IMG/VR virus record: IMGVR_UViG_3300002026_000009
Span: 1 to 64,000 of that record
Source: a virus
Reading direction: 5' to 3' (one strand)
Length of the DNA stretch: 64,000 nt
Part shown: positions 16,741 to 30,517 of the stretch, piece after piece
How positions within the stretch are numbered: position 1 is the stretch's first letter
Layout: each line of letters begins with the position of its first letter
Translations under genes and position numbers: made by a program
The notes under the pieces: generated by a model
What the model saw: the letters and a program-made list of their open reading frames with translations, nothing else
Database searches by the model: none
Told to the model about the DNA's origin: nothing

Positions 16741-17020
16741 GTTGACGGAAACGTATTCTGGACGGCGGGGCAGTACCGCCCAGGTCCACCATAAAACACA
16801 CTACGGCACTGTCTTAGTTCAGTGTGGTTCGATTAAGTAGTGTGTTTTATATTGGGCCTGACACAGTTTCGACAGGGTAAAGAGTACTGATATGGACAAC
16901 TCGTCAGGAGTAGACGTTAAAAGCAAACTAAACTAACCGCAAACGACAGCGAGTTCGCCCTAGCCGCTTAAGGCTTGGCTGAGGTTTGACCCGTTACCTT
17001 ATTAACAAAAACGGGTCACT
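16741..17020 (+). ncRNA. ssrA: circularly permuted (two-piece) tmRNA gene
   Basis: The acceptor piece ends ...GGAC-GGCGG-GGCAGTA-CCGCC-CAGGTCC-A-CCA at 16793. A 12-bp hairpin spacer occupies 16795-16850. The coding piece starts GGGCCTGACACAGTTTCGACAGGG at 16853. The acceptor stem GGGCCTG/CAGGTCC has a G3:U70 pair. The tag ORF GCA AAC GAC AGC GAG TTC GCC CTA GCC GCT TAA (16939-16971) encodes ANDSEFALAA. The outer boundaries are uncertain. Confidence 0.75.
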
Positions 17021-17030
17021 AATTTCTCTC

Positions 17031-17059
17031 TTGAAGACGCTGGTTATCTTTGATATAAT
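17031..17059 (+). promoter_or_regulatory. promoter TTGAAG-N17-TATAAT
   Basis: Hexamers read directly. Confidence 0.55.
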
Positions 17060-17083
17060 TATTGTTCTTTAGGAGATTAAAGC

Positions 17084-17278
17084 ATGGCTGGATATACAAA
17101 AGAATTTTTGGTTGATGCCTTTCTTTCGCGGTATATGGACATTGATCCACAAAAATTTGAAGACCTAGCCACTATGGCTAACAACTTCTATGATGCAGAA
17201 GGCCGCGACAAGTTCCGCGCGTACTGCTCACTAGATGCTGAGGCAATTAGGGTTTATAAAAATTGGCTTGCGGCTTAA
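17084..17278 (+). CDS. hypothetical protein
   Basis: AGGAG RBS. TAA stop. Confidence 0.6.
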   Translation: MAGYTKEFLVDAFLSRYMDIDPQKFEDLATMANNFYDAEGRDKFRAYCSLDAEAIRVYKNWLAA

Positions 17279-17317
17279 TTGGTTTTTTGTTATAATTATT
17301 GTTCTCTTGGAGAATAT

Positions 17318-18046: not shown

Positions 18047-18129
18047 GGAGTAGATGGAACAATGGCGTTCTAGCCGGCTGTAACCCGGTGGCCTCTGGCA
18101 GGTAAGTTCGATCCTTACCTACTCCACCA
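18047..18129 (+). tRNA. tRNA-Tyr (GTA)
   Basis: Acceptor GGAGTAG/CTACTCC, anticodon loop CTGTAAC, long variable arm, T loop TTCGATC, A73, CCA encoded. Confidence 0.85.
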
Positions 18130-18277
18130 ATTTTATTAGAAATCTTCTAGCAATAGACACTTGGGCATACTGGACGCAGTACATGAGGCTTGACAGCCTA
18201 CAAGTGGCCGATACGTAGACTAAAGCCCGGCAGGGTGATTAAGATGCGTAGTCGGGGGATTCCTAATAAGATTAGTC

Positions 18278-18361
18278 GGGAGAGTGGTGGAATGGCATAC
18301 ACAGGGCGCTTAAAACGCCCCGCCGCAAGGCATACGGGTTCGAATCCCGTCTCTCCTACCA
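18278..18361 (+). tRNA. tRNA-Leu (TAA)
   Basis: Class II. Anticodon arm GGGCG-CTTAAAA-CGCCC, long variable arm, T arm ACGGG-TTCGAAT-CCCGT, A73, CCA. Confidence 0.8.
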
Positions 18362-18366
18362 ATTAT

Positions 18367-18443
18367 GCGGATATGACGAAATAGGTAAACGTGTCACGCT
18401 TAGAACGTGAATTCTGGGGGTTCGAGTCCCTCTATCCGCACCA
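18367..18443 (+). tRNA. class I tRNA with anticodon TAG (formally Leu-CUA reader, identity uncertain)
   Basis: Perfect acceptor GCGGATA/TATCCGC, anticodon arm TCACG-CTTAGAA-CGTGA, 5-nt variable loop, A73, CCA. 77 nt. Confidence 0.7.
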
Positions 18444-18454
18444 AGTTTTATGCA

Positions 18455-18526
18455 GCAGTTAGTGTAGTGGAAGCACATGAGTCTGTGAAACTCATAGGAA
18501 CGGATCGTATCCGTACTGACTGCCCA
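18455..18526 (+). tRNA. tRNA-His (GTG)
   Basis: G-1 (18455) lies opposite C73. Acceptor CAGTTAG/CTGACTG, anticodon arm TGAGT-CTGTGAA-ACTCA, reduced D arm, T loop ATCGTAT, CCA. Confidence 0.75.
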
Positions 18527-18538
18527 AAGATAGTTAAT

Positions 18539-18613
18539 GGAGCATTCGTCTATCGGTTAGGACACCTGGTTTTCATCCAGATAAGAGGAGTTCGATTCTC
18601 CTATGCTCTTCCA
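18539..18613 (+). tRNA. tRNA-Glu (TTC)
   Basis: Acceptor GGAGCAT/ATGCTCT, anticodon loop TTTTCAT, T arm AGGAG-TTCGATT-CTCCT. Confidence 0.8.
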
Positions 18614-18642
18614 AATTTTTCAACAGCAACTAAAAGGCAAAC

Positions 18643-18771
18643 ATGAGCTACAATCGCGAACTGGAAACTGACAAGCAAGCTAAACAAACCTCGGACAAAA
18701 ATCTGAAGGCTGCAGCTAGTGAGCGACTGAAGAAAAACGCCGAGTGGAAAAAGCGTAATCAAGCTAAATAA
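18643..18771 (+). CDS. hypothetical small basic protein (42 aa)
   Basis: MSYNRELETDKQAKQ...KKRNQAK. Lies between tRNA genes. Confidence 0.3.
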   Translation: MSYNRELETDKQAKQTSDKNLKAAASERLKKNAEWKKRNQAK

Positions 18772-18778
18772 CCTACGT

Positions 18779-18873
18779 GCCACCATAGCTTAACGGTAAA
18801 GCTCCGGCCTTATACTCCGGCGATGGCTCTAGATTGGGGCATGATATAGGTTCGAATCCTATTGGTGGTACCA
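18779..18873 (+). tRNA. atypical tRNA, anticodon TAT (Ile-AUA type) with 25-nt variable insertion
   Basis: Acceptor GCCACCA/TGGTGGT, D arm GCTT-AACGGTA-AAGC, anticodon arm CCGGC-CTTATAC-TCCGG, extra hairpin at 18821-18845, T arm ATAGG-TTCGAAT-CCTAT, CCA. Confidence 0.55.
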
Positions 18874-18874
18874 A

Positions 18875-18985
18875 ATGAATAAACTAAAAACGCACTTGTT
18901 ACTAACAAGCATAATGTTATGCTGTATACTGTTTGCAGTGTGGTTCAACATCGTAGTGCTGTTTATTAGTTTTGTAAGTAATTAA
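18875..18985 (+). CDS. small membrane protein (36 aa)
   Basis: MNKLKTHLLLTSIMLCCILFAVWFNIVVLFISF. Confidence 0.3.
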   Translation: MNKLKTHLLLTSIMLCCILFAVWFNIVVLFISFVSN

Positions 18986-19061
18986 CGCGGGGTATGTCAG
19001 CGGCAGACGGCTGGGCTCATAACCCAGAGGTCGTGGGTTCGAGTCCCACCCACCGCAACCA
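18986..19061 (+). tRNA. tRNA-Met (CAT), initiator-like
   Basis: The 5' CGCGGGG and the anticodon arm CTGGG-CTCATAA-CCCAG carry three G:C pairs, as in fMet tRNAs. The 3' end is ...CGCAACCA. Confidence 0.75.
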
Positions 19062-19068
19062 AATAAAT

Positions 19069-19143
19069 GCATCGTTAGCTCAGAGGTAGAGTTCCTGATT
19101 TACATTCAGGCTGTCGGCAGTTCGATCCTGTCACGATGTACCA
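19069..19143 (+). tRNA. tRNA-Val (TAC)
   Basis: Acceptor GCATCGT/ACGATGT, anticodon arm CCTGA-TTTACAT-TCAGG, CCA. Confidence 0.85.
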
Positions 19144-19148
19144 AATAT

Positions 19149-19224
19149 CCGTCCGTGGTCTAATGGATAAGGCAAGGGACTTCTATTCCCTACGATATGG
19201 GTTCGACTCCTGTCGGGCGGGCCA
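19149..19224 (+). tRNA. tRNA-Arg (TCT)
   Basis: Acceptor CCGTCCG/CGGGCGG, anticodon arm AGGGA-CTTCTAT-TCCCT, G73, CCA. Confidence 0.85.
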
Positions 19225-19239
19225 ATAATTTAAAATACT

Positions 19240-19407
19240 ATGAACGTACTTGTTGTATCAAATCCAGAACTTGGTTGGGATTGTGTTATTGGTGTCTACG
19301 CTGACACACCACGCAATCGTGAACTACTGCAGTCCAAAGAAGAAAATGACGGGTATGTAATCACAGAGCGAGATCTAGAGCAGGACTACGAAGATTGTAC
19401 TGATTGA
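19240..19407 (+). CDS. hypothetical small acidic protein (55 aa)
   Basis: MNVLVVSNPELGWDCVIGVYAD... TGA stop. Confidence 0.4.
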   Translation: MNVLVVSNPELGWDCVIGVYADTPRNRELLQSKEENDGYVITERDLEQDYEDCTD

Positions 19408-19472
19408 TATTTGTAACTCAACTAACTTAAAGGAGAACATTATGCGATTGTGAACAACAACAGGAGCATAAT

Positions 19473-19832
19473 ATGTCTAGAACATACAAAGACAAAAAGT
19501 GGAAGCTACGTCACCCAGAAAATGAATATACATTTGGTGTCGAACGTGTAGCATATGAAGTACAGCGTAGAAACTGGAGCACAGGCGAACTGCTAGACGA
19601 GTACTCTACACGTTATGCATACTTTGATATTCCAGGTGCAAAAAAGAAAAAGCCTCGTCATGAGCATGGTGTGTGGAACTGGTGCAGGAATACGCCTAGT
19701 TGGTGGAATAAAATGACCAGTCATGTCCCAAAGCGTGCTAAGTGCCGTAATTGGGAAAAGACTCGTACGCTAGATAATCTTGACGAAACCTGTCCAGACT
19801 ACGGACGCAAGCCACACATTTACTACTATTGA
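19473..19832 (+). CDS. hypothetical basic protein
   Basis: ORF track entry. AGGAG RBS. TGA stop. Confidence 0.6.
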   Translation: MSRTYKDKKWKLRHPENEYTFGVERVAYEVQRRNWSTGELLDEYSTRYAYFDIPGAKKKKPRHEHGVWNWCRNTPSWWNKMTSHVPKRAKCRNWEKTRTLDNLDETCPDYGRKPHIYYY

Positions 19833-19842
19833 AAAAATTTAC

Positions 19843-19871
19843 TTGACTTTTGGCTGCATATGTACTATAAT
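19843..19871 (+). promoter_or_regulatory. promoter TTGACT-N17-TATAAT
   Basis: Hexamers read directly. Confidence 0.6.
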
Positions 19872-19901
19872 ATGTATGTGGTCAAAAATTATAGGAAAAA
19901 T

Positions 19902-20630
19902 ATGACAATAGGTATTTATAGGCTAATATTTAAAGGTACGGATAAAGTTTATATTGGTCAGTAGGTAAATATAAAGAATAGATATTCTGAGCACCTGCGT
20001 ACATTTAAAGAAGGAAGTGCATCTTGTAAACTGCAAGATGCATATAATTTATACGATATACCTAGCCTAGATATACTGTGTTAGTGTAATCTAACTGAGT
20101 TAGACTCACTAGAGAATGAGGCCATAGAACTTTTTGATAGTGCTAATAATGGGTTTAATACATTTACTCATGAAGGTGGGTCTATACGAAGTGCTGGTGG
20201 GCTAGACCACTGGAACTCGAAGTATCCTAAACGACTTATATTAAAAGTCTTTGCAGCTCTCATTAGATACAAAGACTTATCGTATGCTGCAATAGCTAGA
20301 AAGTTAAACACTTCTCCGTATTTAGTACACAATGTTGTATCTGGGAAGCATCATTTATGGTTGAAAGATTCATATCCAGGTAAATTTGCTATAATGTTAG
20401 AGCTTAAAGCCGGTAAAAAAGATAGAACTAAGAAAACAATAAGTACAGAATTAGGTAATATACCAGTACTTGTATCCCCATCAGGTGATTATTTCAAAGT
20501 ACCGAATATTCGACAGTTTTGTGTAGAGCATCCAGACTTTTGTAGTAACATAGATGCATCTAGATCGTCTTTAGGTAAAGTAATTAAAGGCACAAAGACT
20601 TCTCACAAAGGCTGGGTATTAGCCTCTTAA
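19902..20630 (+). CDS. GIY-YIG homing endonuclease, 2 in-frame TAG (19962, 20082)
   Basis: One frame reads MTIGIYRLIFKGTDKVYIGQ-TAG-VNIKNRYSEH...KGWVLAS, 243 codons with no TAA or TGA. The ORF track shows only the last third (20361..20630). Confidence 0.7.
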
Positions 20631-20638
20631 ATATTGTC

Positions 20639-20667
20639 TTGATTTTGTAAACCAAACCGTGTATAAT
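20639..20667 (+). promoter_or_regulatory. promoter TTGATT-N17-TATAAT
   Basis: Hexamers read directly. Confidence 0.55.
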
Positions 20668-20687
20668 TATTGTTTTAAAGGATAATT

Positions 20688-21647
20688 ATGCTCGGTTTCG
20701 CTTGTAAAATTAACAGTGCATACGATACAGCAGCTTCCGGGCTGAATATCAAGGGTACAACTCTTACATGGTTACGTGCTAACCCTGATAAAGCGTATAT
20801 CAAGCTATCTGACTTGTTGCGCGATAATCTCAAGGCATTAGAGGCTCAGATTGAGTTTATTGGTGCCCTGCCAAAGCAGCAGCGAATGTTTCGTATTACC
20901 AGTGACTTGCTTCCCGCATACACTACTGATGATTTTATGCCATTCTACTACCAAGATCATATCCAGCAAATACTGGAACATATACTTGGTCGTATTGGTG
21001 CTCGTGCTAGATAGTTAGGCATTCGCCTTTCAATGCATCCTGGCCAGTTCTGTGTATTAGCTAGCGATAATCCAGCGGTTGTAGAAAATTCTATTGCAGA
21101 GTTTGAGTATCACGCTGATATTATTCGTTGGCTAGGGTACGGTAAAACATTTCAAGACTTTAAGTGTAATATCCACATTGGTGGTAAACGTGGCCCTGCG
21201 GGACTGCGTGAAGCGTACTACCAGCTTAGTCAAACTGCACGTAACTGCATTACAGTTGAAAATCAGGAATTTACCTGGGGACTAGAGCATTGCCTAGAAT
21301 TGGCTGATATTATACCTACTGTATTCGATATTCACCACGACTGGATTTACAACGGCAAATATCGTACAGAAATTCCTCTAGACGTGCTAACTAGCTGGCG
21401 TGGGCTTCGTCCTACAATGCATGTTAGCTGTTCTAGAGTTCGTGAGCATGACGCAACGGCTATAGCTACCAAGCAAGCACTACGTGCTCATAGTGATTAC
21501 ATCTACGAGTCTGTGCTGGTAGACGAGCTACTGCCATGTTACCATGAACACTTTGATATAATGGTTGAGGCCAAAGAAAAGAATTTTGCTCAGCAACAGC
21601 TTGTCGATAGTTGGGTAGAAAAATTTGGATTTGACCCCAATGTTTGA
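20688..21647 (+). CDS. UV-damage endonuclease (UvdE family), 1 in-frame TAG (21012)
   Basis: ORFs 20688..21014 and 21033..21647 are in frame. Motifs FRITSDLLP, IRLSMHPGQF, NIHIGG, ENQE and DIHHD span the TAG. Confidence 0.75.
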
Positions 21648-21659
21648 TTACTGTATAAT
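21631..21659 (+). promoter_or_regulatory. promoter TTGACC-N17-TATAAT
   Basis: Hexamers read directly. Feeds the tRNA block at 21.8-22.4 kb. Confidence 0.55.
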
Positions 21660-21804
21660 TTATTTATAAATTGAAAGAGCGACTCATTATCCTTAAATGG
21701 TAGCGAGAAAGGCGCGTTTACTAGGATCGTAAAAACAACTAGACGGGCAGTGTATCAATGCTTAGTAATAATTTGATGCCGGTACCCATACGACAATGGG
21801 TTAT

Positions 21805-21880
21805 CTCTGGTTCGGTTAGCGGCTATACCTCTACGTTTGGGACGTAGCTTTCGTAGGTTCGAGTCCTACACCAGAGACCA
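21805..21880 (+). tRNA. tRNA-Pro (TGG)
   Basis: C1:G72 acceptor CTCTGGT/ACCAGAG, anticodon arm CTACG-TTTGGGA-CGTAG, CCA. Confidence 0.85.
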
Positions 21881-22061
21881 TAAGTAAATATCTTGCTAGT
21901 TCCATGTATTTGGAACCTTGCACTCCAGTGAAATAAGGGTACCCGGCCGGTATATCCCTAAAGCGGAGTAGTTCTAGTATAGCTAGCCTTTAGCGGGGTA
22001 GTGCAAAAGCTAGAGTATGCGTAATTTGACTACGTAGGCAGCAAACAGGATATTTAATTAT

Positions 22062-22136
22062 GGGCTATTAGTGCTAACGGGAACACGCCTGGTTTGCAAC
22101 CAGGAATTGACAGTTCGATCCTGTCATGGTCCACCA
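22062..22136 (+). tRNA. tRNA-Ala (TGC)
   Basis: G3:U70 acceptor GGGCTAT/ATGGTCC, anticodon arm CCTGG-TTTGCAA-CCAGG, CCA. Confidence 0.85.
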
Positions 22137-22331
22137 AAACCTACCTTAGGGTTCGTTGTCGCAACGGTTAGAGGCTAATACCTCAGGCGTCCGTGATCTA
22201 TATAGTCGTCACGTTAAACCTCTTTATGAGTGACCACAGCCGCCAAGCAGTGGGGTACAAAGGAACTATACGTATTATGTACGCGGTAGGAGCGAAATGC
22301 CTACGCTGGAGTCGTAACCAGCACTAATTCA

Positions 22332-22411
22332 GGAGGTAGGGACTGCACGGCGTGGTCGCCACACTGTCACTGTGGATATTCAGATGGGTTCAATTCCCAT
22401 TACCTTCGCCA
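22332..22411 (+). tRNA. tRNA-Asp (GTC)
   Basis: Acceptor GGAGGTA/TACCTTC, anticodon arm CCACA-CTGTCAC-TGTGG, G73, CCA. 8-nt variable loop. Confidence 0.8.
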
Positions 22412-22487
22412 GTTTAGCCGAAAAGGGTAGCTCCCTCCGTTATTACCACGAATAATAACTAGGCTTTCATCTTTCGTGGAGATTATA

Positions 22488-23213
22488 ATGAATAGTGGAA
22501 TTTACTCCCTTAAATGGGATTAGCAAGGTTTAATATATGTTGGCCTAAGCCAGGATATAGATGGCAGATTGAAAAGTCATATAAATATGTTACTAGGTAA
22601 CAGGCATACTAACTATAAAGTACAGAATGCTTTTAATAAATTTGGGCATCCAAGTACAGAAGTACTTGAATTATGTGACATATAGAAGCTAGCAGAAAGA
22701 GAAGTTTATTGGTGTAATAAACTAAATGCGCTAGGACCAAATGGGTTATGTATTGTTGAGCCTGGAATAGTAGGTTTTGGTACAAATAGCAACTATACTA
22801 AATATAGTAAATATCAAATACTAAAAGTATTTTCCTTGTTATACAATGGTCAAAAAAGTTAGACAGAAATAGAATAGATGACCAAAGTATAGTCTAGGAC
22901 TGTAAAAGATATTTCACGTGGTAATTAGCACTTATGGTTAAGGGAACAGTATCCCCAAAAATATGATTTAATGCTAAAAGCTGATAGAGCCGCTATAGGT
23001 ATTCAATAGAAATCCAGAACATTAAAAGGATACTTACTAACTCCATAGCTAGATGTCGTGCCTATACACAGTTATGCAGATTTTGTACGAAATATACATC
23101 CAGAACTGGATCAAAAGTAGATAAATACTATGGTCTAGGGTTTGGCAAGAGTTTTACGTGGCGAACGTAAAACTTATAAAGGGTATAGTAGAGCAGATGG
23201 AGTAGTCGCATAA
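22488..23213 (+). CDS. GIY-YIG homing endonuclease, 10 in-frame TAG
   Basis: 242 codons (MNSGIYSLKWD-TAG-QGLIYVGLSQDIDGRLKSH...YKGYSRADGVVA) with ten TAG and no TAA or TGA until 23211. The 3' end overlaps the suppressor tRNA. Confidence 0.6.
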
Positions 23214-23285
23214 CGGTATTGCAGGGGTCTCTAAAACCCCCGGTCAGAAATGGCCTTCTGAGTTCGACCCTCAGCTACTCCGCCA
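23199..23285 (+). tRNA. suppressor tRNA, anticodon CTA (reads TAG); Ser-type architecture
   Basis: Reads as GGAGTAG TC GCATAACGGTATTGC A GGGGT CTCTAAA ACCCC CGGTCAGAAATGGCCTT CTGAG TTCGACC CTCAG CTACTCC G CCA. It has a 3-bp D stem, a 17-nt variable arm, G73, and G2:C71, A3:U70 and C11:G24 pairs. Its arm lengths and variable arm match tRNA-Ser(GCT) at 27406. Confidence 0.85.
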
Positions 23286-23295
23286 AAAGAAAACG

Positions 23296-23577
23296 ATGAT
23301 AAAAGTACCTGATGAGTGGTTGCCACTAGCCAATGAGTTGTTAGCAGATTTAAATCTGCTGAAAAAACAAAAAGTATACGAGACACTAGAAGTCTTATGG
23401 ATAGTAGAAAAAGACAGGCACTTAAAAGTTGCCTATAGATTAGAGCCTGATGTTGATGAATTATATGAAGTAATCATGAACATCATTAAGTATTACGAGA
23501 AACATATGCAAGCTATTTCCTTTACCAAAACAAGTAATATCCAGGGTAATACTGGAGGAAGTAGCACAGCCTTTTGA
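23296..23577 (+). CDS. hypothetical protein
   Basis: ORF track entry. TGA stop. Confidence 0.6.
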   Translation: MIKVPDEWLPLANELLADLNLLKKQKVYETLEVLWIVEKDRHLKVAYRLEPDVDELYEVIMNIIKYYEKHMQAISFTKTSNIQGNTGGSSTAF

Positions 23578-23601
23578 TTTATAGACTTACTCTATAAACT
23601 C

Positions 23602-23626
23602 AAGGGGCCAATTGGCCCCTTTTTTA
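23602..23626 (+). terminator. intrinsic terminator AAGGGGCC-AATT-GGCCCCTT + T run
   Basis: Read directly. Confidence 0.7.
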
Positions 23627-23628
23627 TT

Positions 23629-23703
23629 GCCCCATTATCCTTAATGGCAGAGGTCTGCTTTTGTAATGCAGGTGTGTGTGTTCGATTCATACATGGGGCA
23701 CCA
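23629..23703 (+). tRNA. tRNA-Thr (TGT)
   Basis: Acceptor GCCCCAT/ATGGGGC, anticodon loop TTTGTAA, CCA. Confidence 0.8.
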
Positions 23704-23714
23704 GAATTTCTGTC

Positions 23715-23743
23715 TTGATTTACCAAAGCCTTTCGTGTATAAT
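23715..23743 (+). promoter_or_regulatory. promoter TTGATT-N17-TATAAT
   Basis: Hexamers read directly. Confidence 0.55.
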
Positions 23744-23767
23744 AGAGGCTTAAACAGTGAGAAAAAC

Positions 23768-23962
23768 ATGAATTACCGTAAGCGCAAAAAAGCTATTACC
23801 AAGAAGCTAGCGCTACAAGGTGTACGTTTAGCGTACAATCCTCTTAACCGACATGCAGGCAGCGAATATGAGTTTTACCTATTCCAATTGCGTGTTTTAA
23901 AAAATATGAAAAGAGCACTAAATGAGCGCAAAAAATCGAAAAAAGCTGCCAAAGCCGCGTAA
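23768..23962 (+). CDS. hypothetical highly basic protein (64 aa)
   Basis: ORF 23666..23962, trimmed to the Met after the tRNA and promoter. Confidence 0.5.
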   Translation: MNYRKRKKAITKKLALQGVRLAYNPLNRHAGSEYEFYLFQLRVLKNMKRALNERKKSKKAAKAA

Positions 23963-24049
23963 CATATTTGCGACTTTGGCATGTAAACGGGTTGCTGGTT
24001 CCCATACAAAACCATACAAATCACTTCGCGGTAGGCTAAATCGCGATAC

Positions 24050-24124
24050 GGAGGTATAACTTAACGGTTAAAGTACGGCACTTTTAATGCTGTAATCAGG
24101 GTTCGATTCCCTGTGCCTCCACCA
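24050..24124 (+). tRNA. tRNA-Lys (TTT)
   Basis: Acceptor GGAGGTA/TGCCTCC, anticodon arm CGGCA-CTTTTAA-TGCTG, CCA. Confidence 0.85.
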
Positions 24125-24165
24125 TATTTAAATGTATTGTTTAGTGCCTTTAAATATGGTAATGT

Positions 24166-24240
24166 TGGGGGTTAGTGAAATGGTTATCACCACGCACTTT
24201 GACTGCGTTATTTCAAGTTCGAGTCTTGAACCCTCTGCCA
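24166..24240 (+). tRNA. tRNA-Gln (TTG)
   Basis: U1 is unpaired and G73 is present, as in bacterial tRNA-Gln. Perfect D arm GTGA/TCAC. Anticodon arm ACGCA-CTTTGAC-TGCGT, CCA. Confidence 0.85.
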
Positions 24241-24253
24241 AATAAGGAAACGT

Positions 24254-24592
24254 ATGGAAAGACCAGACTGCTGGAAGATTGTTAAAATAACTGCTCCAAC
24301 CGGAGAAATACACTATCGTGTAGCAATGGGCTGGTACGGTGGTTATTTAGGTAGTGATAGCTGGCAGATGAATAGTGGAATTGCTAGCCATTACTTTACA
24401 AACGAGGATAAAGATGTTGTTTTTGTTGGCGTTAGTGGTAGCGAATATATATGTTCACTACACAATGAAGGTTTAAACGGCTACGTTTCAAGCGTGGTTG
24501 TTGGTTATAGTAAAAAACTAGCCAATATAGGTGCTAGTATTGAAGAAGTATTTTTTAGCGAATACTGCGTGTGTAGTTCAATGGTAGAATAA
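24254..24592 (+). CDS. hypothetical protein
   Basis: ORF track entry. The 3' end overlaps tRNA-Gly by 26 nt. Confidence 0.5.
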   Translation: MERPDCWKIVKITAPTGEIHYRVAMGWYGGYLGSDSWQMNSGIASHYFTNEDKDVVFVGVSGSEYICSLHNEGLNGYVSSVVVGYSKKLANIGASIEEVFFSEYCVCSSMVE

Positions 24593-24640
24593 GACGTTGC
24601 CAACGTTTGGACGAGAGTTCGATCCTCTCCACCCGCACCA
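24567..24640 (+). tRNA. tRNA-Gly (GCC)
   Basis: Acceptor GCGTGTG/CACCCGC (one U:C mismatch), anticodon loop TTGCCAA, CCA. Confidence 0.8.
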
Positions 24641-24641
24641 T

Positions 24642-24716
24642 GCTGGATAGACCGAGTGGCGAGGTACCGTCTTGATAAGGCGGCTGTAGATGGATCGTAA
24701 CCATCATCCAGTACCA
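24642..24716 (+). tRNA. tRNA-Ile (GAT)
   Basis: Acceptor GCTGGAT/ATCCAGT, anticodon arm CCGTC-TTGATAA-GGCGG, T arm GATGG-ATCGTAA-CCATC, CCA. Confidence 0.75.
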
Positions 24717-24725
24717 AAATAAAAT

Positions 24726-24804
24726 ACCGTATAGGCCGACAAGGTGTTAGGCAAATGGCTGTTAACCATTCTCAAGCTGGGTTCGATTCCTAGATACGGT
24801 GCCA
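24726..24804 (+). tRNA. tRNA-Asn (GTT)
   Basis: Acceptor ACCGTAT/ATACGGT, anticodon arm AATGG-CTGTTAA-CCATT, G73, CCA. Confidence 0.8.
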
Positions 24805-24811
24805 ATTAAAT

Positions 24812-24888
24812 CCCGATATAGCTCAAGTGGACTAGAGCGTGCGTGTGCACTGCGCAAGATGGTGGTTCGAATCCGCCTTGAGGGGCCA
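24812..24888 (+). tRNA. tRNA-like gene with defective acceptor stem (anticodon position GCA); possible pseudo-tRNA
   Basis: The D arm (GCTC/GAGC) and T arm (GGTGG-TTCGAAT-CCGCC) are perfect and the gene ends GCCA. Only 4 of 7 acceptor pairs form, and the loop GTGCACT is atypical. Confidence 0.4.
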
Positions 24889-25027
24889 AGAAAAAAGTAT
24901 CGTATAGGGAACATTGCCGAATACTTCACCCTGGACTGGGCGTCCATCGGAACCTATAGACCTTCTGCAGGGGGTTTATAACAGTGTTTATTTAACATTG
25001 TTATAAGTCAGGCAAAGAAATTTGCAC

Positions 25028-25056
25028 TTGCCTTGTTTCCTAAAACCCTGTATAAT
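25028..25056 (+). promoter_or_regulatory. promoter TTGCCT-N17-TATAAT
   Basis: Hexamers read directly. Feeds the 560-nt non-coding leader of rsr. Confidence 0.55.
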
Positions 25057-25069
25057 TATATCTTTAACA

Positions 25070-25276
25070 GCGACTAAAACAACACACTGTTGTAGCGAAA
25101 GTAAACTGCTTGGCGGCAGTTAAAATCAGTTACTTCAAACTATGATGGTCTGGGCTTGTAACCGGACGCCCCTCATATACGGTTAGTATATAATCCCTAA
25201 TGTAAGGCATGTTGTAGGTTAATGAACATGCTGAGCACTGATGCGGATATTCTCAATAGTGTGTTGCTTTAGTTGT
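25070..25276 (+). ncRNA. Y-RNA-like module 1 (long terminal stem)
   Basis: Positions 25070-25088 pair with 25258-25276 over 19 positions with one A:C mismatch. The interior contains CAGTTACTTC (25127) and the hairpins 25177-25191 and 25207-25232. Confidence 0.45.
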
Positions 25277-25283
25277 AGTGTTT

Positions 25284-25371
25284 AAATCGGTTACTTCTTT
25301 TTATTTGTTCTAAAAACGACTGGGTGTTCGATTCCCCGGAGGCCGCTGGTGCATGGGCCAATATCCGATTT
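25284..25371 (+). ncRNA. Y-RNA-like module 2
   Basis: Closing stem AAATCGG/CCGATTT, then TTACTTC, then a degenerate T-arm (GGGTGTTCGATTCCCC) and a D-arm-like GGCC-GCTGGTGCAT-GGCC. Confidence 0.4.
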
Positions 25372-25482
25372 TCCTGTTCTCAACTTTCTTCTTTGGTGTC
25401 TCGACCGTTACGTTCTCGTAATATAAAGACTTGATTTTAGGTAAACCGTCTCCCTAAAGCCAACCCTATTTTAGTAGTGTTA

Positions 25483-25586
25483 GAAACAGTTACTTCACTT
25501 TTAATGAAGAGGTCGGTGGTTCGAGTCCACCCAGGTTGGTCTCTAGCCTGTAGCTCAGTTGGATAGAGCGCTAAAATCTCTGTTTC
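25483..25586 (+). ncRNA. Y-RNA-like module 3 with permuted tRNA-like domain (YrlA-type)
   Basis: Closing stem GAAACAG/CTGTTTC. Order of elements: hairpin CTTCA-CTTTTAA-TGAAG, AGGTC, T arm GGTGG-TTCGAGT-CCACC, acceptor 3' strand CAGGTTG, cap GTCTC, acceptor 5' strand TAGCCTG, TA, D arm GCTC-AGTTGGATA-GAGC. Confidence 0.6.
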
Positions 25587-25621
25587 GTCTTGTTCTCTAA
25601 ATTCTTTTTTTAAAGGAAACT

Positions 25622-26932
25622 ATGTCTTCGATCAATCGCGTATCCCGTGTAGTTAATAAAACTTTCGAGGGTGCTGCTGCAAAACTAATTACTCCTGAAG
25701 CTAAGCTGAATCGTGTGGTTATGGCTTCCATGCTGTGGGAAGGACAATTTTACATCGACGGCCAAAAGTCGGCTGATGTAATTAAAGACCTTGTTGCTAA
25801 AGTCGACCCTAAGGTGGTAGAGTCTATTGCAATCAAGGCACGCGAAGCCATGAAACTTCGCCATGTGCCACTGTTCATTACCCGTGAACTGGCACGTATC
25901 GGCAAACTCTCACACGAGGTGCTAACTCGTGTTATCCAGCGTCCTGACGAATTGGGTGAGTTTGTATCAATGTATTGGATGGATAAGAAACAACCGCTGT
26001 CCAATCAAGTTAAACGTGGTCTAGCTAACGCTTTCCACAAGTTTAACGAATACCAGTTTGCTAAGTGGAATAAGTCTAGCGCAGCTGTGAAGCTCCGTGA
26101 TGTACTATTCCTAACCCACGCTAAACCTCGTACAGAGGGTGAGGCCGATCTCTTCAAGCGTATCGCTGATGAGAAACTGGAAACTCCAGATACTTGGGAA
26201 ACCGAGCTGTCTGGTGGTGCGGATAAAGGTGCTACCTTTACTCGCCTTATGAAGGAAAATAAGTTGGGTGCACTGGCATTCCTTCGTAACCTGCGGAATA
26301 TGGTACAGGCTGGAGTTGACGAAAGCCTTATCCGGGAATACGCTCGTGGTGTGAATACTGACCGTGTTCTTCCATTCCGCTTCCTTGCAGCAGCCCGCAT
26401 CGTTCCTCAATTCGAGGACATGCTGGAAAGCATGATGCTTCGTAGCCTTGAAAGCCACGAAAAGCTGCCAGGAAAAACCGTTCTGCTAATCGACGTTAGT
26501 GGCTCGATGTTCGGTACGAAAGTATCTGAAAAGAGCGATCTTGATCGTTTTGACGCAGCAGCTGCACTTGCTATTCTAGCTCGTGAAATCTGTGAAGAAG
26601 TAGAAATCTACTCCTTCTCGTACAACGCAGTTCGCGTTCCAGCCCGTCGTGGCATGGCACTGGTAGAGGCTATTCGCAACAGCCAAAACCACGGTGGTAC
26701 AGCAACAGGTAAAGCTGTTCGTAGCATTAACGCTAATGTTGAGTATACTCGCTGTATCATCTTCACCGATGAACAGTCGCATGACGTAGTACCTAACCCA
26801 ACAGGTATTGGTTATATCATCAACGTAGCTGCCTACGAAAACGGTATCGGTAACTCTAACTGGACTACCATTAGTGGTATGTCTGAAGCCGTTATCGACT
26901 ATATCCAGTTGTCTGAAAAGACAGTGGATTAA
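25622..26932 (+). CDS. rsr: Ro60-related protein (Rsr): TROVE + vWA domains
   Basis: 436 aa. The N-terminal part is TROVE-like. The vWA MIDAS motif LLIDVSGSM is present. AAAGGAAA RBS, TAA stop. Confidence 0.75.
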   Translation: MSSINRVSRVVNKTFEGAAAKLITPEAKLNRVVMASMLWEGQFYIDGQKSADVIKDLVAKVDPKVVESIAIKAREAMKLRHVPLFITRELARIGKLSHEVLTRVIQRPDELGEFVSMYWMDKKQPLSNQVKRGLANAFHKFNEYQFAKWNKSSAAVKLRDVLFLTHAKPRTEGEADLFKRIADEKLETPDTWETELSGGADKGATFTRLMKENKLGALAFLRNLRNMVQAGVDESLIREYARGVNTDRVLPFRFLAAARIVPQFEDMLESMMLRSLESHEKLPGKTVLLIDVSGSMFGTKVSEKSDLDRFDAAAALAILAREICEEVEIYSFSYNAVRVPARRGMALVEAIRNSQNHGGTATGKAVRSINANVEYTRCIIFTDEQSHDVVPNPTGIGYIINVAAYENGIGNSNWTTISGMSEAVIDYIQLSEKTVD

Positions 26933-27075
26933 AGACTAGAATTGATCCTTCTAGTCTACAACGCGTGATGCTCCAGGAACCACTTGCCTATGGTCGAGAG
27001 CTAGTAACCACACGGTAGTCAGTCCGGTTAAATAATGTTGGCTCTAAGCTTCGGCTTAGAAAAGTGCTTAGTGTA

Positions 27076-27116
27076 GTAACAGTTACTTCATTTTTGGTAT
27101 AATAAAAGCCTGTTAC
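27076..27116 (+). ncRNA. Y-RNA-like module 4 (stem-loop only)
   Basis: GTAACAG/CTGTTAC stem enclosing TTACTTC... Confidence 0.3.
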
Positions 27117-27272
27117 GCTTTTTCTAGCTCTTTTCTAAGCCATAGCGTATATTTTGATTACATCACTAACCACACTTCTAGTACCGCACAGTTGGGTGCA
27201 TGCAGGGTTCGAATCCCAGGGCAAAAACATCAAAATAGTTTTTCTTGGCTAATTTTTACAATCCTTAGCGTA

Positions 27273-27381
27273 TAAACAGTTACTTCTTAACCTCAATAGC
27301 CGTACCTGGGTTCGATTCCCAGCATCCCTAAACTGGGGTGTAATCTAATGGTAGGATTGGCTAACTAAAAAAGCCTGTTTA
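27273..27381 (+). ncRNA. Y-RNA-like module 5 with permuted tRNA-like domain (YrlA-type)
   Basis: Closing stem TAAACAG/CTGTTTA, then TTACTTC. T arm CTGGG-TTCGATT-CCCAG, acceptor CATCCCT-AAAC-TGGGGTG capped by a tetraloop, then TA and the D arm ATCT-AATGGTA-GGAT. Confidence 0.6.
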
Positions 27382-27405
27382 ATTTTTCTAGGATTACTTT
27401 ATATT

Positions 27406-27492
27406 GGAAGATGTGTTGCAAGGTGCGACATCGGTTTGCTAAACCGCCGTTCAGAAATGGGCTGATAGGTTCGATTCCTATATCTTCCGCCA
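27406..27492 (+). tRNA. tRNA-Ser (GCT)
   Basis: Class II. Acceptor GGAAGAT/ATCTTCC, anticodon loop TTGCTAA, variable arm CGTTCAGAAATGGGCTG, G73, CCA. Confidence 0.85.
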
Positions 27493-27505
27493 ACTAATAA
27501 ATATT

Positions 27506-27733
27506 ATGCACGACCCTAAATCGCTAGAAGCGTTCTTCTTAGAGTATATGCCTAGGACTAAAGAAGTTCTAGAGTCACTATGGGCTACAGATCGACGTGA
27601 GTTGTCCTAGGTTCTTCAAGAGTTTATGCGCGCAAGCGGAGAAAATTCTTGGATGTACCCGTATTTTTCCGATCTAGATTATTACACACGAACAGCACAA
27701 CATAAGTACACCAATCCCTGGGAAGTACTGTGA
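27506..27733 (+). CDS. hypothetical protein, 1 in-frame TAG (27608)
   Basis: MHDPKSLEAFF...RELS-TAG-VLQEFMRASG... The TGA stop overlaps the GTG start of the next gene. Confidence 0.45.
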
Positions 27734-27954
27734 GCAATATATCCACTGATTACGTCGCTAGTGATACCACTAGGCGACGTATTGTTGTTACTAGTCTCAT
27801 CCTTAGCTGGGCCATTATAGGCTGGCTAATTTTATACGGCAATCAATCTAATAGCCTACACGAATCGGCTTTAGCCTGGAGTTACGCGTACAATATTTTA
27901 GTACTATTTGCATATAGCTTTGGTACTATTATTAAAGACTACTTTAAGAAATAA
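27730..27954 (+). CDS. membrane protein (74 aa)
   Basis: ORF track entry. Two hydrophobic segments. Confidence 0.5.
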   Translation: MSNISTDYVASDTTRRRIVVTSLILSWAIIGWLILYGNQSNSLHESALAWSYAYNILVLFAYSFGTIIKDYFKK

Positions 27955-27955
27955 T

Positions 27956-28029
27956 ATCTCCTTAGTGTAATGGCAACACGTCGCGCTCCAAACGCGTTAA
28001 TCAGGGTTCGAGTCCTTGAGGGGATGCCA
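27956..28029 (+). tRNA. tRNA-Trp (CCA)
   Basis: Acceptor ATCTCCT/AGGGGAT, anticodon loop CTCCAAA, G73, CCA. Confidence 0.85.
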
Positions 28030-28035
28030 AAACCT

Positions 28036-28127
28036 GGAAAGTAGTGCAGCGGGGCTGGTCCTGCGACGAGCCTTGAAAACTCGGTTCTCAGAAATGGGAT
28101 GGGGTTCGACTCCTCTGCTTTCCTCCA
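28036..28127 (+). tRNA. tRNA-Ser (TGA)
   Basis: Class II. Acceptor GGAAAGT/GCTTTCC, anticodon loop CTTGAAA, variable arm containing CAGAAATGG. The D loop is long and position 73 is U. Confidence 0.7.
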
Positions 28128-28166
28128 ATTTTTAACCAGCGCCCACCGCGCAAAATTTAGCACATT

Positions 28167-28793
28167 ATGAGTAAAGATTCCAAAAGCATTGACCTTGATA
28201 ACATTGTTAGTGGAGGCTCTAATGTCTTTACTAAAACAGTTGCACGTGACTATAGCTTCTACCTTAGTGGAGAAATTCTAGAGCCTAGTGAATATATAGA
28301 GTGGTTTGATACTATTCGCACTGCTGGGCCCAACGACAGCGTAACCATTCACATTAATTAGATGGGTGGCAATCTAGATACAGCTATTCAGTTTATTCGT
28401 GTTCTAGGTGAGACTCAAGCAGAGGTTATTACTAGCGTTGAAGGTTCTTGCATGAGTGCAGCTACCATGATCTTTTTATAGGGTCATAGTCTACAGATTA
28501 CACCTTTTAGCCTTTTCATGTTCCACAACTATAGTGGAGGTGCCTTTGGTAAGGGCGGGGAAATGTACGACAACATTATGTTCGAACGTAAGTGGTCAAG
28601 TGAATTTTTACACCATGTTTACAAAGACTTCTTAACAGCAGAAGAAATTAATTCTATGCTAGATAATAAAGATATTTGGATGGGACATACAGAGGCGGAA
28701 GATCGCTGCCGTAAAATGATGAAGGCGCGTACCGCAGCAACAAAAGCTCAACAGTGTGAACTTGATATAGACGACGCAGATGACGCCAGTTAA
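28167..28793 (+). CDS. ClpP-like serine protease, 2 in-frame TAG (28359, 28479)
   Basis: ORFs 28167..28361 and 28518..28793 plus the piece between them share one frame. IHIN-TAG-MGG resembles ClpP INSPGG, GSCMSAA carries the Ser, and MFHNYSGGAFG resembles MIHQPxGG with the His. Confidence 0.7.
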
Positions 28794-28800
28794 TTAACAC

Positions 28801-28829
28801 TTGAATTGTCTGTTAAGTTTTGATATAAT
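28801..28829 (+). promoter_or_regulatory. promoter TTGAAT-N17-TATAAT
   Basis: Feeds the tRNA-Cys, Met and Arg block. Confidence 0.6.
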
Positions 28830-28838
28830 TATTCTTTA

Positions 28839-28913
28839 AATACAGTGGCCGAGCGGCGAGGCAAGTGATTGCAAATCACTATTATGTGGGTTCGAATCCC
28901 ATCTGTATTTCCA
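28839..28913 (+). tRNA. tRNA-Cys (GCA)
   Basis: Perfect acceptor AATACAG/CTGTATT, anticodon loop TTGCAAA, U73, CCA. Confidence 0.85.
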
Positions 28914-28914
28914 T

Positions 28915-28991
28915 AGTCAAGTAGCTCCAACGGTTAGAGTAACGGTTTCATACGCCGGCTGTTGTAGGTTCGAGTCCTACCTTGACTACCA
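28915..28991 (+). tRNA. tRNA (CAT): elongator Met or Ile2
   Basis: Acceptor AGTCAAG/CTTGACT, anticodon loop TTCATAC, T arm GTAGG-TTCGAGT-CCTAC, CCA. Confidence 0.8.
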
Positions 28992-28994
28992 AAT

Positions 28995-29069
28995 ACCTCG
29001 TTAGTACAACGGATAGTGCACTAGGCTACGAACCTGGGAATGTGAGTTCGATTCTTGCACGAGGTACCA
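28995..29069 (+). tRNA. tRNA-Arg (ACG)
   Basis: Acceptor ACCTCGT/ACGAGGT, anticodon arm CTAGG-CTACGAA-CCTGG, CCA. Confidence 0.85.
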
Positions 29070-29070
29070 T

Positions 29071-29196
29071 AAATAACCGCATACATCAGCTACAATGGAA
29101 CACCGATAGCCTATTACAAGTTCCGGATACGTAATAGGCAGGCCATGAAGAGTTAGAGCTGGCAGAAGTTTAAGCATTCAGTATGCGGTTATTTAT
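29071..29196 (+). other. 126-nt structured element closed by a 14-bp stem
   Basis: AAATAACCGCATAC (29071-29084) pairs with GTATGCGGTTATTT (29183-29196). An inner 9-bp hairpin GCCTATTAC/GTAATAGGC is present. The 3' arm covers the RBS and start of the next CDS. Confidence 0.4.
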
Positions 29197-29476
29197 GGCA
29201 AAAACATTTACATCTATTAAAAATCCAGCACTACAGCTAACTGACCAACTACCATTTGGTAAGTTTAAAGGCTGTAGAATTTGTGATATACTCGAGGACG
29301 ATTGGGAATATCTTAAGTGGATGAAGCAAAATACTAGCATTAACTTTAGCCGACCAGTACTTGACTCAATTACAGCGCGGTTTTCAGCTTGGGCAGATGA
29401 AACACACTATAACGAAGAAGTAGCCCCGTATCTTAACAATGATGCCGATATTGACCCAGAGGATGTACCATTTTGA
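29195..29476 (+). CDS. hypothetical protein
   Basis: ORF 29183..29476. Start at MAKTF. Confidence 0.55.
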   Translation: MAKTFTSIKNPALQLTDQLPFGKFKGCRICDILEDDWEYLKWMKQNTSINFSRPVLDSITARFSAWADETHYNEEVAPYLNNDADIDPEDVPF

Positions 29477-29700
29477 CTAAACGAGTATTTAAAACCGTAT
29501 CACTTAGCCCTAATACATCAACACAACGTAGTACTGAGTATATTCCTAGTCGCGTGACTTCTGGTGGTTCTACTGCTGCTAAGCCTGTAATGACGTATAC
29601 CGGACATGAAATGGTTGGCATTGCTATTATTCATAAAAGCTGCCTGCAACCTGTCTTTAGTAAAGAAGCAGCCGAAGATACCGCTAAAATGCGTAGATAA
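29473..29700 (+). CDS. hypothetical protein
   Basis: ATGA overlap. TAA stop. Confidence 0.55.
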   Translation: MTKRVFKTVSLSPNTSTQRSTEYIPSRVTSGGSTAAKPVMTYTGHEMVGIAIIHKSCLQPVFSKEAAEDTAKMRR

Positions 29701-29705
29701 ATAAA

Positions 29706-29779
29706 GCGTGGTTCGTTTAATGGTAGGACTTCTGCCTTCCAAGCAGATAGCAAGGGTTCGATTCCCTTACCCCGCACCA
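29706..29779 (+). tRNA. tRNA-Gly (TCC)
   Basis: Acceptor GCGTGGT/ACCCCGC, anticodon arm TCTGC-CTTCCAA-GCAGA, CCA. Confidence 0.85.
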
Positions 29780-29788
29780 AGGAAAATA

Positions 29789-30112
29789 ATGTATACATCA
29801 TATTATACTTATCTAGAAGAAACAAGTGTTCGCAGATCAAAGTATGCAGAACCAATTAACGATTTAGAACCCATGAGAACCAATCTTACAAACGATAACA
29901 TCGAAACCTACGTTCGTAAACACGCTTACATCGTAGCATCCATGTCCGATGCTGGTCTTAGCGTTGCCGAGGCTCCTGTAATTCATCCTACAATTATCGT
30001 AGCACGTGCAGAATGCCAACGTCTTGCTAAACTGAATCCTGGTAAAAACTTCATTGCCCTACAATTAGGCGCATTGGAGCGAGTAGCGTATCAGCCAAAC
30101 GTTTCAATTTAA
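29789..30112 (+). CDS. hypothetical protein
   Basis: ORF 29708..30112, trimmed to the Met after the tRNA (GGAAAA RBS). Confidence 0.55.
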   Translation: MYTSYYTYLEETSVRRSKYAEPINDLEPMRTNLTNDNIETYVRKHAYIVASMSDAGLSVAEAPVIHPTIIVARAECQRLAKLNPGKNFIALQLGALERVAYQPNVSI

Positions 30113-30116
30113 TCAC

Positions 30117-30145
30117 TTGATTCGTTGAAGTGTTTATTGTATAAT
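30117..30145 (+). promoter_or_regulatory. promoter TTGATT-N17-TATAAT
   Basis: Hexamers read directly. Confidence 0.55.
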
Positions 30146-30169
30146 TTATACTTCAACGGAGAAATTAAA

Positions 30170-30517
30170 ATGGAAAATATGCGTAAAATTGTTGTCCACG
30201 TTACTGCTGGTACTGGTATGGATAACTGGGAGTTCTACGAAGTAGACCCTAAGGTAGAGCGAGGCGTAATCGACAACTTTGCTGAAGAGGCCGCCATCGA
30301 ATGGGCAGATTCATATGGCATAGGCGACCCCGGCAATTACCCAGACGAGCAAGACTTCGAAGACGATGAAGATGGGTACTCTGATGCCATTGATGAATGG
30401 GAAGCAGCCAGCCACGACTGGGATCAAGTAGAAGGCTCATTCGAAGATTACGTTCCAGAAAAACACGATGGATACTCAATGACGGGTACTCCAGAGTTTC
30501 AACGCTTCTCTAGCTGA
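30170..30517 (+). CDS. hypothetical very acidic protein
   Basis: GGAG RBS before ATG 30170. The 3' end overlaps tRNA-Phe. Confidence 0.55.
   Translation: MENMRKIVVHVTAGTGMDNWEFYEVDPKVERGVIDNFAEEAAIEWADSYGIGDPGNYPDEQDFEDDEDGYSDAIDEWEAASHDWDQVEGSFEDYVPEKHDGYSMTGTPEFQRFSS

Follow-up and report, generated by a model that had tools for sequence, protein, structure and literature searches.

An uncultured T5-like phage with a circularly permuted tmRNA gene

Two-piece transfer-messenger RNA (tmRNA) was established in Caulobacter (Keiler et al. 2000, as cited in PMC11915505 and PMC9004378), and circularly permuted ssrA genes, which encode it, have since been described from many phages. Of the 18,146 phage genomes surveyed by Buchholz et al. 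(2022; PMC9004378), 402 carried tmRNA genes, which represented 133 unique tmRNAs; ARAGORN called 53 of these as two-piece. A tmRNA database published in 2025 lists 79 phage tmRNAs (PMC11915505). Carriers of two-piece tmRNAs include HTVC008M and Mosig of Pelagibacter, Melnitz of Methylophilales, phiCbK-like phages of Caulobacter, the cyanophages S-CRM01, S-CAM1, S-CAM3, and S-SSM7, the roseophages DSS3P8 and MD18, and Stenotrophomonas phage Mendera (PMC9004378 Table S1). Here, we analyze a further gene of this kind, located at about 16730-17030 of a 64,000-nt stretch of viral DNA (hereafter the window; positions 1 to 64,000 of IMG/VR record IMGVR_UViG_3300002026_000009).

An initial annotation, made from the sequence of the window, had proposed a permuted tmRNA gene at this locus and had regarded a phage copy as unusual, on the premise that permuted ssrA genes are known only from some α-Proteobacteria, β-Proteobacteria, and cyanobacteria. 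We confirm the gene. The premise of novelty is wrong because permuted tmRNAs of phages are established in the literature, with many cultured carriers, and we find relatives of the window gene in at least 130 IMG/VR contigs. The window gene is thus one more two-piece tmRNA among those of dozens of phages and not the first. Its specific features, moderate in weight, are a T5-like carrier, a chimeric form that joins an alpha-type elbow to a beta-type body, and its escape from ARAGORN at default settings.

Identity and anatomy of the permuted gene

Covariance models, a relaxed ARAGORN search, and covariation among relatives concur that the locus is a real and intact two-piece tmRNA gene. Among the models of Rfam 15, with curated gathering thresholds as cut-offs, tmRNA_permuted (RF04321) matched the window at 16730-16971 (+) with 123 bits (cut-off 47, E 1.5e-23) over the full length of the model (1-213), and beta_tmRNA (RF01850) matched 16683-17046 with 108.4 bits (cut-off 84, E 4.7e-32). 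RF01850 was the match retained after clan competition among the tmRNA models, the beta model outscoring the alpha model on this locus. Covariance models had been named in the initial annotation as a check on the gene, and they accept it. Run locally with its threshold lowered to 95%, ARAGORN reported a "Permuted" tmRNA with the same domains and tag, and folding of the precursor gave a z-score of -3.4 and reproduced the T-arm, the acceptor stem, the spacer, and the stop-codon and terminal hairpins. We hold it to be very probable that the locus is a functional ssrA gene, in circularly permuted form, of an uncultured T5-like phage.

The order of the gene, all on the + strand, is permuted: the 5' acceptor strand comes after the T-arm, the 3' acceptor strand, and CCA, from which a spacer separates it. 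A reading of 16500-17300 together with exact string searches recovered every element that the initial annotation had named, with ends displaced by 1-2 nt: CCA ends at 16791 rather than 16793, G1 lies at 16854 rather than 16853, and the spacer accordingly measures 62 nt and not 60. The acceptor piece, that is, the 3' tRNA-like part, spans 16730-16791, its start being that of the RF04321 match, and contains the 5' strands of helix 2, the T-arm, the 3' acceptor strand, the discriminator A73 (16788), and an encoded CCA (16789-16791, located by exact string search). Its outer helix-2 strand AGUUGU (16730-16735) pairs with ACAACU (16896-16901) of the other piece, as does the helix 2a strand UAUUCUG (16754-16760) with CAGGGUA (16873-16879). 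The T-arm (16764-16780) consists of GGCGG, the noncanonical loop GGCAGUA in place of the usual UUCGAAU, and CCGCC. It is followed by the 3' acceptor strand CAGGUCC (16781-16787). The acceptor stem GGGCCTG/CAGGTCC has 7 bp with G3 (16856) facing U70 (16785), as initially described.

The intervening sequence (16792-16853), delimited by the CCA end and G1, is predicted to be removed on maturation. Its stem strands AAAACACACTAC (16793-16804) and GTAGTGTGTTTT (16837-16848) form the 12-bp hairpin of the initial annotation, which can be extended to 14 bp as 16791-16804 with 16837-16850. Within it, folding predicts an inner hairpin (16806-16811 with 16820-16825), followed by an unpaired T-loop-like GGTTCGATT (16826-16834). 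The base at -1 before G1 is U.

The coding piece, which comprises the 5' tRNA-like strand and the mRNA-like part, runs from 16854 to a predicted 3' end at 17032 (RF04321 extends to 16971 and RF01850 to 17046). It opens with the 5' element GGGCCTGACACAGTTTCGACAGGG, placed at 16854 by exact string search, and its first stretch (16854-16873) holds the 5' acceptor strand GGGCCUG and the D-loop analogue ACACAGUUUCGAC, with AG at 16865-16866 where most tmRNAs carry GG. Upstream of the resume codon lies a conserved 27-nt core, UCGUCAGGAGUAGACGUUAAAAGCAAA (TCGTCAGGAGTAGACGTTAAAAGCAAA in DNA form; 16901-16927), which contains the hairpin CGUC-AGGAGUA-GACG (16902-16916). The tag frame (16939-16971) begins at the alanine resume codon GCA and translates exactly to the previously read ANDSEFALAA, with a hydrophobic ALAA end, before the TAA stop. 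This stop codon sits in the loop of a hairpin, AGCC-GCUUAA-GGCU (16962-16975), found in both the minimum free energy and the centroid fold.

Both the RF01850 alignment and the fold place a terminal 9-bp hairpin at 16987-16995 with 17010-17018, with a U-rich tail after it (16987-17032 in all). Its 14-nt loop ACCUUAUUAACAAA agrees with the loop consensus of beta_tmRNA, and relatives carry the same terminal hairpin and then a T-run. On structural prediction, hairpin and tail are a probable 3' end or terminator. At the other end of the gene, the RF01850 alignment puts promoter columns at 16672-16729, a weak candidate promoter region in which a consensus scan gave TTGTAA-18-TATGAT (16672-16701, +) and reading by eye gave an extended -10-like candidate, TGgTAATAT (16721-16729, +).

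A constrained phage family and its T-loop variant

Among cultured phages, BLAST finds sequence similarity to the locus in two only, Synechococcus phage BUCT-ZZ01 and Ralstonia phage RsoM2USA, and in both the matching gene is unannotated. In a collection of 50,697 phage records, megablast and blastn searches with the locus returned short core matches to these two phages only, the tRNA-like 3' half of the window gene had only chance-level matches in phage records, and the commonest IMG/VR tmRNA type was without a match among the 50,697 records. The 27-nt core is identical in BUCT-ZZ01, in the jumbo phage RsoM2USA, and in 11 IMG/VR contigs, and a 26-nt core had 0 matches in 185,579 species-representative bacterial and archaeal genomes. 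Both cultured copies lie in apparently empty intergenic stretches (locus L001, 2832-3128 of ON615601, BUCT-ZZ01; locus L002, 2876-3071 of MG752970, RsoM2USA) and exceed the cut-offs of RF04321 and RF01850. The tag of RsoM2USA is misread by ARAGORN; its frame by homology gives ANDSRYAVAA. In total, intact relatives were found in at least 130 IMG/VR viral contigs and the 2 cultured phages, with tags such as ANDERFALAA, ANDELFALAA, ANDEQFALAA, and similar.

For covariation we aligned 22 diverse family members with the spacer taken out. RNAalifold recovered the T stem, the acceptor stem, and three helix-2 segments linking both pieces. Across 27 base pairs, 94.4% of cells were paired and 20 of the 27 pairs showed compensatory changes; 0 of 500 shuffles scored as high, and slid controls gave 33-46% pairing. 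The helices between the pieces were 89-100% paired, with compensatory changes in 7 of 7 pairs of helix 2a and in 5 of 6 pairs of outer helix 2 (RNAalifold columns 10-15 with 117-123). The T stem was paired throughout (100%) with 3 covarying pairs, and G3:U70 was kept in 22/22. Given this covariation and its agreement with the fold, we conclude that the two-piece architecture is under selection in a phage tmRNA family. The window tmRNA is established in its identity, its anatomy, and the evolutionary constraint upon it.

The T-loop of the window gene recurs throughout this family. A pattern combining the odd T-loop, the acceptor strand, and CCA is present in at least 120 IMG/VR contigs, where the loop stands atop about ten different compensating T stems, and among the pattern matches listed nearly all have GGGCCTG and a D-loop analogue 25-380 nt downstream. 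We aligned the elbow of about 120 family members (phage loci L001-L133 and bacterial loci L134-L158). Of 111 distinct sequences with a T-loop of the form GG..G, 109 have A-G in the D-loop analogue; the form UU..A is accompanied by G-G in 6 of 6, and the intermediate UG..A by A-G in 3 of 3. At T-loop position 55, U or G goes with G or A, respectively, at D-loop position 18, and T-loop positions 54 and 58 shift jointly from U..A to G..G. The intermediate loop UGCGAAU with A18 is seen in L007, L010, L012, and L013.

The variant is not confined to phages. About 20 alphaproteobacterial species, comprising Micavibrio and uncultured Rickettsiales and Rhodospirillales genomes, share the tRNA-like domain, and their genes are strong alpha-type tmRNAs by RF01849 (195-223 bits). 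Burks et al. (2005; PMC1168896) had noted GG in the T-loop of Reclinomonas mitochondrial tmRNA and UG in that of Caulobacter. We considered the T-loop as a new feature and rejected this on both grounds. Because it recurs in nature with a co-varying D-loop, we regard GGCAGUA, on comparison of sequences, as a functional and known variant of alpha/mitochondrial type that is neither a sign of decay nor disqualifying. Phage genes with the odd-loop domain score as alpha-type in some cases (L018, L025, L026) and as beta-type in others (the window gene, L044, L095, L110). Since the window gene has this domain and a beta-type score, it joins an alpha/mitochondrial-type elbow to a beta-like body. A weaker reading of the same combination is that permuted ssrA genes may have moved from one bacterial class to another by way of phages.

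Default ARAGORN finds 61 of 128 loci bearing the odd T-loop and misses 67, about half; thus, surveys based on ARAGORN undercount phage tmRNAs. Those missed are recoverable with Rfam RF04321.

The spacer in the phage family

A closing stem is the rule in the spacers of the family. Of 113 distinct spacers with a length of 30 nt or more, 92% have a stem of at least 6 pairs between their first 16 nt and last 20 nt; on average the spacers form 10.8 such pairs, and shuffles 3.1. The stem begins directly after CCA and stops about 4 nt short of G1. Spacers usually start with UAAA, UAAG, or AAAG after CCA and end with UGAU or UAAU before G1. Bacterial RNase P prefers U at -1, which fits this spacer end, and the A/U-rich stretch after the encoded CCA would suit an endonucleolytic cut followed by exonuclease trimming.

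Many of the longer spacers carry a protein-coding frame. A single open reading frame (ORF) fills the spacer in 15 of 22 distinct family spacers of at least 150 nt (L118, L049, L088, L133, L027, L045, L076, L121, L018, L030, L091, L094, L005, L046, L067) and in several shorter ones (L016, L069, L087), with 23-123 codons. In the long spacers the ORF covers 88-97% of the spacer as against about 35% in shuffles, and 0-1 of 200 shuffles match the observed coverage. The ORFs are preceded by a Shine-Dalgarno-like UAAGGA directly after CCA and stop at a conserved UGA just before G1. In homologous pairs, substitutions are biased to third codon positions (10, 7, and 33 at positions 1, 2, and 3 for L045 versus L076), and the cargo of L045 is a full-length DUF2061 membrane protein (E 3.5e-20). 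The cargo ORFs differ between groups. As read from the sequence, the closing stem UAAGGAA/UUCUUUA would sequester the cargo ribosome-binding site. By analogy with tRNA punctuation in mitochondria, we propose that processing of the tmRNA precursor would simultaneously release a cargo mini-mRNA.

The spacer of the window is without an ORF and holds only its hairpin and a T-loop-like remnant. We tentatively suggest, while thinking it somewhat less probable than its contrary, that this hairpin is the empty form of a conserved cargo slot. The T-loop-like GGTTCGATT motif, unpaired in the window, forms a T-arm-like hairpin in the spacers of L032, L035, L100, and L112, where its canonical type contrasts with the noncanonical T-loop of the tmRNA itself; an intact tRNA was found in none of the family spacers. 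We found no description of ORFs inside tmRNA spacers in the searchable literature, and the spacer contents given in the tmRNA database paper are a tRNA-Ala gene and a repeat element only. If confirmed, protein genes in the spacer would represent a new way to package and release small phage genes.

Carrier phage, proposed function, and known systems

The window comes from an environmental contig. Several of its proteins have exact counterparts in an NCBI WGS record (prefix JFJP01, contig of 100,539 bp) and in JGI sample 3300001765; the RNR protein gave no exact match. [quoted passage not shown] The tmRNA gene lies in a 455-nt gap between ORFs at 16359-16628 and 17084-17278, all on the + strand, and an array of 26 tRNA genes (18047-30579, ARAGORN) starts 1 kb downstream. 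The window encodes PolA, DnaB-like and other helicases, primase, an SbcCD-like nuclease, NAD ligase, RNR, dUTPase, ThyX, and PhoH. Its PolA is 51% identical to that of the Vibrio T5-like phages pVp-1 and KIT04, and its SleB-like hydrolase is of a type seen in T5-like phages. A scan of about 66 ORFs revealed no cellular core genes, so that the phage setting assumed in the initial annotation is borne out by a T5-like replication module, the 26 tRNAs, and the lack of cellular housekeeping genes among these ORFs. The gene for the SleB-like hydrolase (PF07486) is at 13761-14348 (-), and a homologue is located about 0.1-2.5 kb from the permuted tmRNA in about 35 otherwise different viral contigs (L003-L013, L037, L044, L046, L060, and about 25 more loci). 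We considered this hydrolase as a host marker and set it aside because its cultured homologues are in T5-like enterobacterial phages; it supports the T5-like identity only.

We propose the following course for the window tmRNA. One precursor, about 16730-17030, would be made on the strand of the flanking genes and the downstream tRNA array. Host RNase P would cut 5' of G1 (16854, preceded by U) and host 3'-end enzymes would trim back to the CCA of the gene (16791), and the 62-nt spacer with its closing stem would be lost. The acceptor stem and helix 2 (16730-16735/16896-16901 and 16754-16760/16873-16879) would keep the two pieces joined. The RNA would be charged by the host alanyl-tRNA synthetase (AlaRS) via G3:U70 and brought into stalled ribosomes by host SmpB and EF-Tu. 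Translation would then restart at GCA 16939, add ANDSEFALAA, and stop at TAA, which would free the ribosome and target the peptide to host proteases. The benefit to the phage may be that, jointly with the 26 tRNA genes, ribosomes are kept available during the destruction of host DNA and mRNA; in addition, the RNA may counter RNA-cleaving defences.

Several observations count against a functional ssrA gene. The window T-loop lacks the canonical U54, U55, and A58 and does not fit the pattern UUCRANY, and ARAGORN at its default threshold returned 26 window tRNAs and did not call the tmRNA, probably because GGCAGUA replaces UUCGAAU; the ARAGORN check suggested in the initial annotation was thus negative at default and positive at 95%. 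The promoter candidate is a weak consensus match only, and by eye we found no convincing pseudoknot 1 in 16902-16938, beside the hairpin at 16902-16916. An SmpB gene was not found within the 64-kb window, so that function would hinge on host SmpB accepting the tRNA-like domain. Processing, charging, and tagging by the window tmRNA are inferred from its family and from what is known of two-piece tmRNA.

Some of these points could also describe a decaying, non-functional ssrA relic, in which the odd T-loop blocks elbow folding, processing, or the binding of SmpB or EF-Tu. The departure from UUCGAAU and the default ARAGORN miss agree with decay, as does a beta_tmRNA score that is the lowest when the window gene is set among the canonical-loop relatives of the group sharing the 27-mer. 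Decay is nevertheless very unlikely. The loop persists in at least 120 viral contigs, on stems that covary richly, and it co-varies with its D-loop partner (109/111). Chromosomal tmRNAs of about 20 alphaproteobacterial species with high RF01849 scores have it too, and GG and UG T-loops had been noted in the tmRNAs of Reclinomonas mitochondria and Caulobacter, respectively (PMC1168896). Moreover, the window gene has kept its tag frame, G3:U70, and CCA intact.

An RNA that is expressed could also chiefly compete with or reprogram host trans-translation, through titration of SmpB or an altered fate of tagged proteins. The tag-less tmRNA of mycobacteriophage DS6A is reported, in work cited in PMC11915505, to inhibit endogenous tmRNA in Escherichia coli, selective tagging of host proteins was floated as a possibility by Buchholz et al. 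(PMC9004378), and the missing SmpB gene in the 64-kb window would fit as well. Because the resume context, the full tag frame, and the ALAA end, which are needless for an inhibitor, are kept in the window and in the family, we consider this improbable. It is scarcely credible that the locus is bacterial DNA, whether a misassembled host fragment or the part of an ssrA gene left at the attachment site of an integrating element, even though tmRNA genes are common targets of integration and fragments of ssrA are frequent in prophages (PMC9004378). The locus is no 3' fragment, because it has both pieces together with the spacer, the tag, and the terminal hairpin; no integrase was found among the window ORFs scanned, and the flanking genes are those of a phage. 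Furthermore, the locus is identical in two independent assemblies, JGI contig MIS_1001755 and the Logan assembly of SRR931349, and the 26-mer core is absent from the 185,579 bacterial and archaeal species genomes. We thus favor a functional, two-piece phage tmRNA.

The initial annotation had suggested that the tmRNA may point to the lineage of the host, and this we reject. The cultured phages that carry the core have a betaproteobacterium (Ralstonia) and a cyanobacterium (Synechococcus elongatus) as hosts, and the core itself is absent from the bacterial species genomes. In Citrobacter, Stenotrophomonas, Xanthomonas, and the hosts of crAss-phages the tmRNA is, as far as is known, one-piece, and published two-piece carriers also infect these bacteria. 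Thus, tmRNA type does not predict host. A GcrA-like Pfam match (E 6.6e-6, one of 46 ORFs) was considered as a host hint and left unused, as its ORF was not located on rescan and it may be a generic helix-turn-helix.

The window has further features of note. Within the tRNA array, a YrlA (Y RNA-like) match at 25483-25589 (+), of full model length and below the cut-off (40.9 bits against 69, E 5.7e-7), lies 33 nt upstream of a gene for a Ro60/TROVE and vWA protein (25622-26932, +), an order that is the known Rsr-Y RNA arrangement, here on a phage beside a tmRNA. The tRNA calls differ between programs, with those at 18047, 22332, 24642, 24726, and 27406 made by ARAGORN only and that at 24812-24885 by Rfam only; some ARAGORN calls are 79-95 nt long, and that at 27406 scores only as tRNA-Sec, below threshold. 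An 87-nt tRNA at 23199-23285 (+) with anticodon CUA, labelled Pyl by ARAGORN and not among the Rfam calls at gathering threshold, has a cloverleaf with a long variable arm and is therefore a possible amber suppressor; TAG is the stop in 4 of 33 long ORFs. The PolA gene (42027-45540, +) is interrupted by a 1.18-kb insertion that leaves two parts, 42027-43742 and 44923-45540. The insertion holds a 301-amino-acid ORF (43983-44888) without a Pfam match, and about 12 residues occur twice at the junction, whereas the close relatives P0002 and P0003 have an uninterrupted polymerase of 767 amino acids. Amber read-through across the split is excluded because the gap contains TAA, TGA, and TAG; a mobile endonuclease-type insertion or an intron is the likely cause. 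At 14973-15461 (+) is a MazZ-like dATP/dGTP diphosphohydrolase N-terminal domain (PF18909, E 4e-36), a domain linked to phage genomes with the modified base 2-aminoadenine.

With this gene, a T5-like lineage joins the phages that have their own ribosome-rescue RNA, here beside a near-complete tRNA set and a Ro60/Y-RNA pair, which supports the view that large virulent phages bring with them a module for RNA maintenance and translation. Like the published two-piece phage tmRNAs, the window gene is a permuted ssrA that accompanies tRNA genes in a large virulent phage, has a tag ending in AA, and presumably relies on host SmpB. Unlike that set, no glutamine riboswitch was detected at the window gene, and its phage is T5-like, whereas Table S1 of PMC9004378 lists no T5-like phage. 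The one-piece phage tmRNAs of Bxz1-like mycobacteriophages, Streptomyces phages, and Bacillus phage G likewise stand beside tRNA genes; they have the standard order and a single RNA, whereas the window gene is permuted.

Of the clade-specific models, the betaproteobacterial RF01850 fits best, and the window gene shares with it the helix-2 layout, the pre-tag hairpin, a tag of the ANDxxFALAA type, the post-tag region, and a terminal hairpin with a conserved CCUU..AAC.AAA loop. It differs from RF01850 in its T-loop, GGCAGUA against UUCGAUU in the model, and in its D-loop analogue, AG against GG. Unlike the members of RF01850, it is borne by a phage and not by a betaproteobacterial chromosome, and its 26-nt core is in no species-representative bacterial genome. 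With alphaproteobacterial and mitochondrial tmRNA (RF01849, Micavibrio-like) it shares the tRNA-like domain, that is, GGAC-stem-GGCAGUR-stem-CAGGUCCACCA, GGGCCUG, and the A-G D-loop. Its mRNA-like body differs from that of the Micavibrio-like group, in which the bacterial tags are long and alpha-type, for example ANDNFVVANDN...AA.

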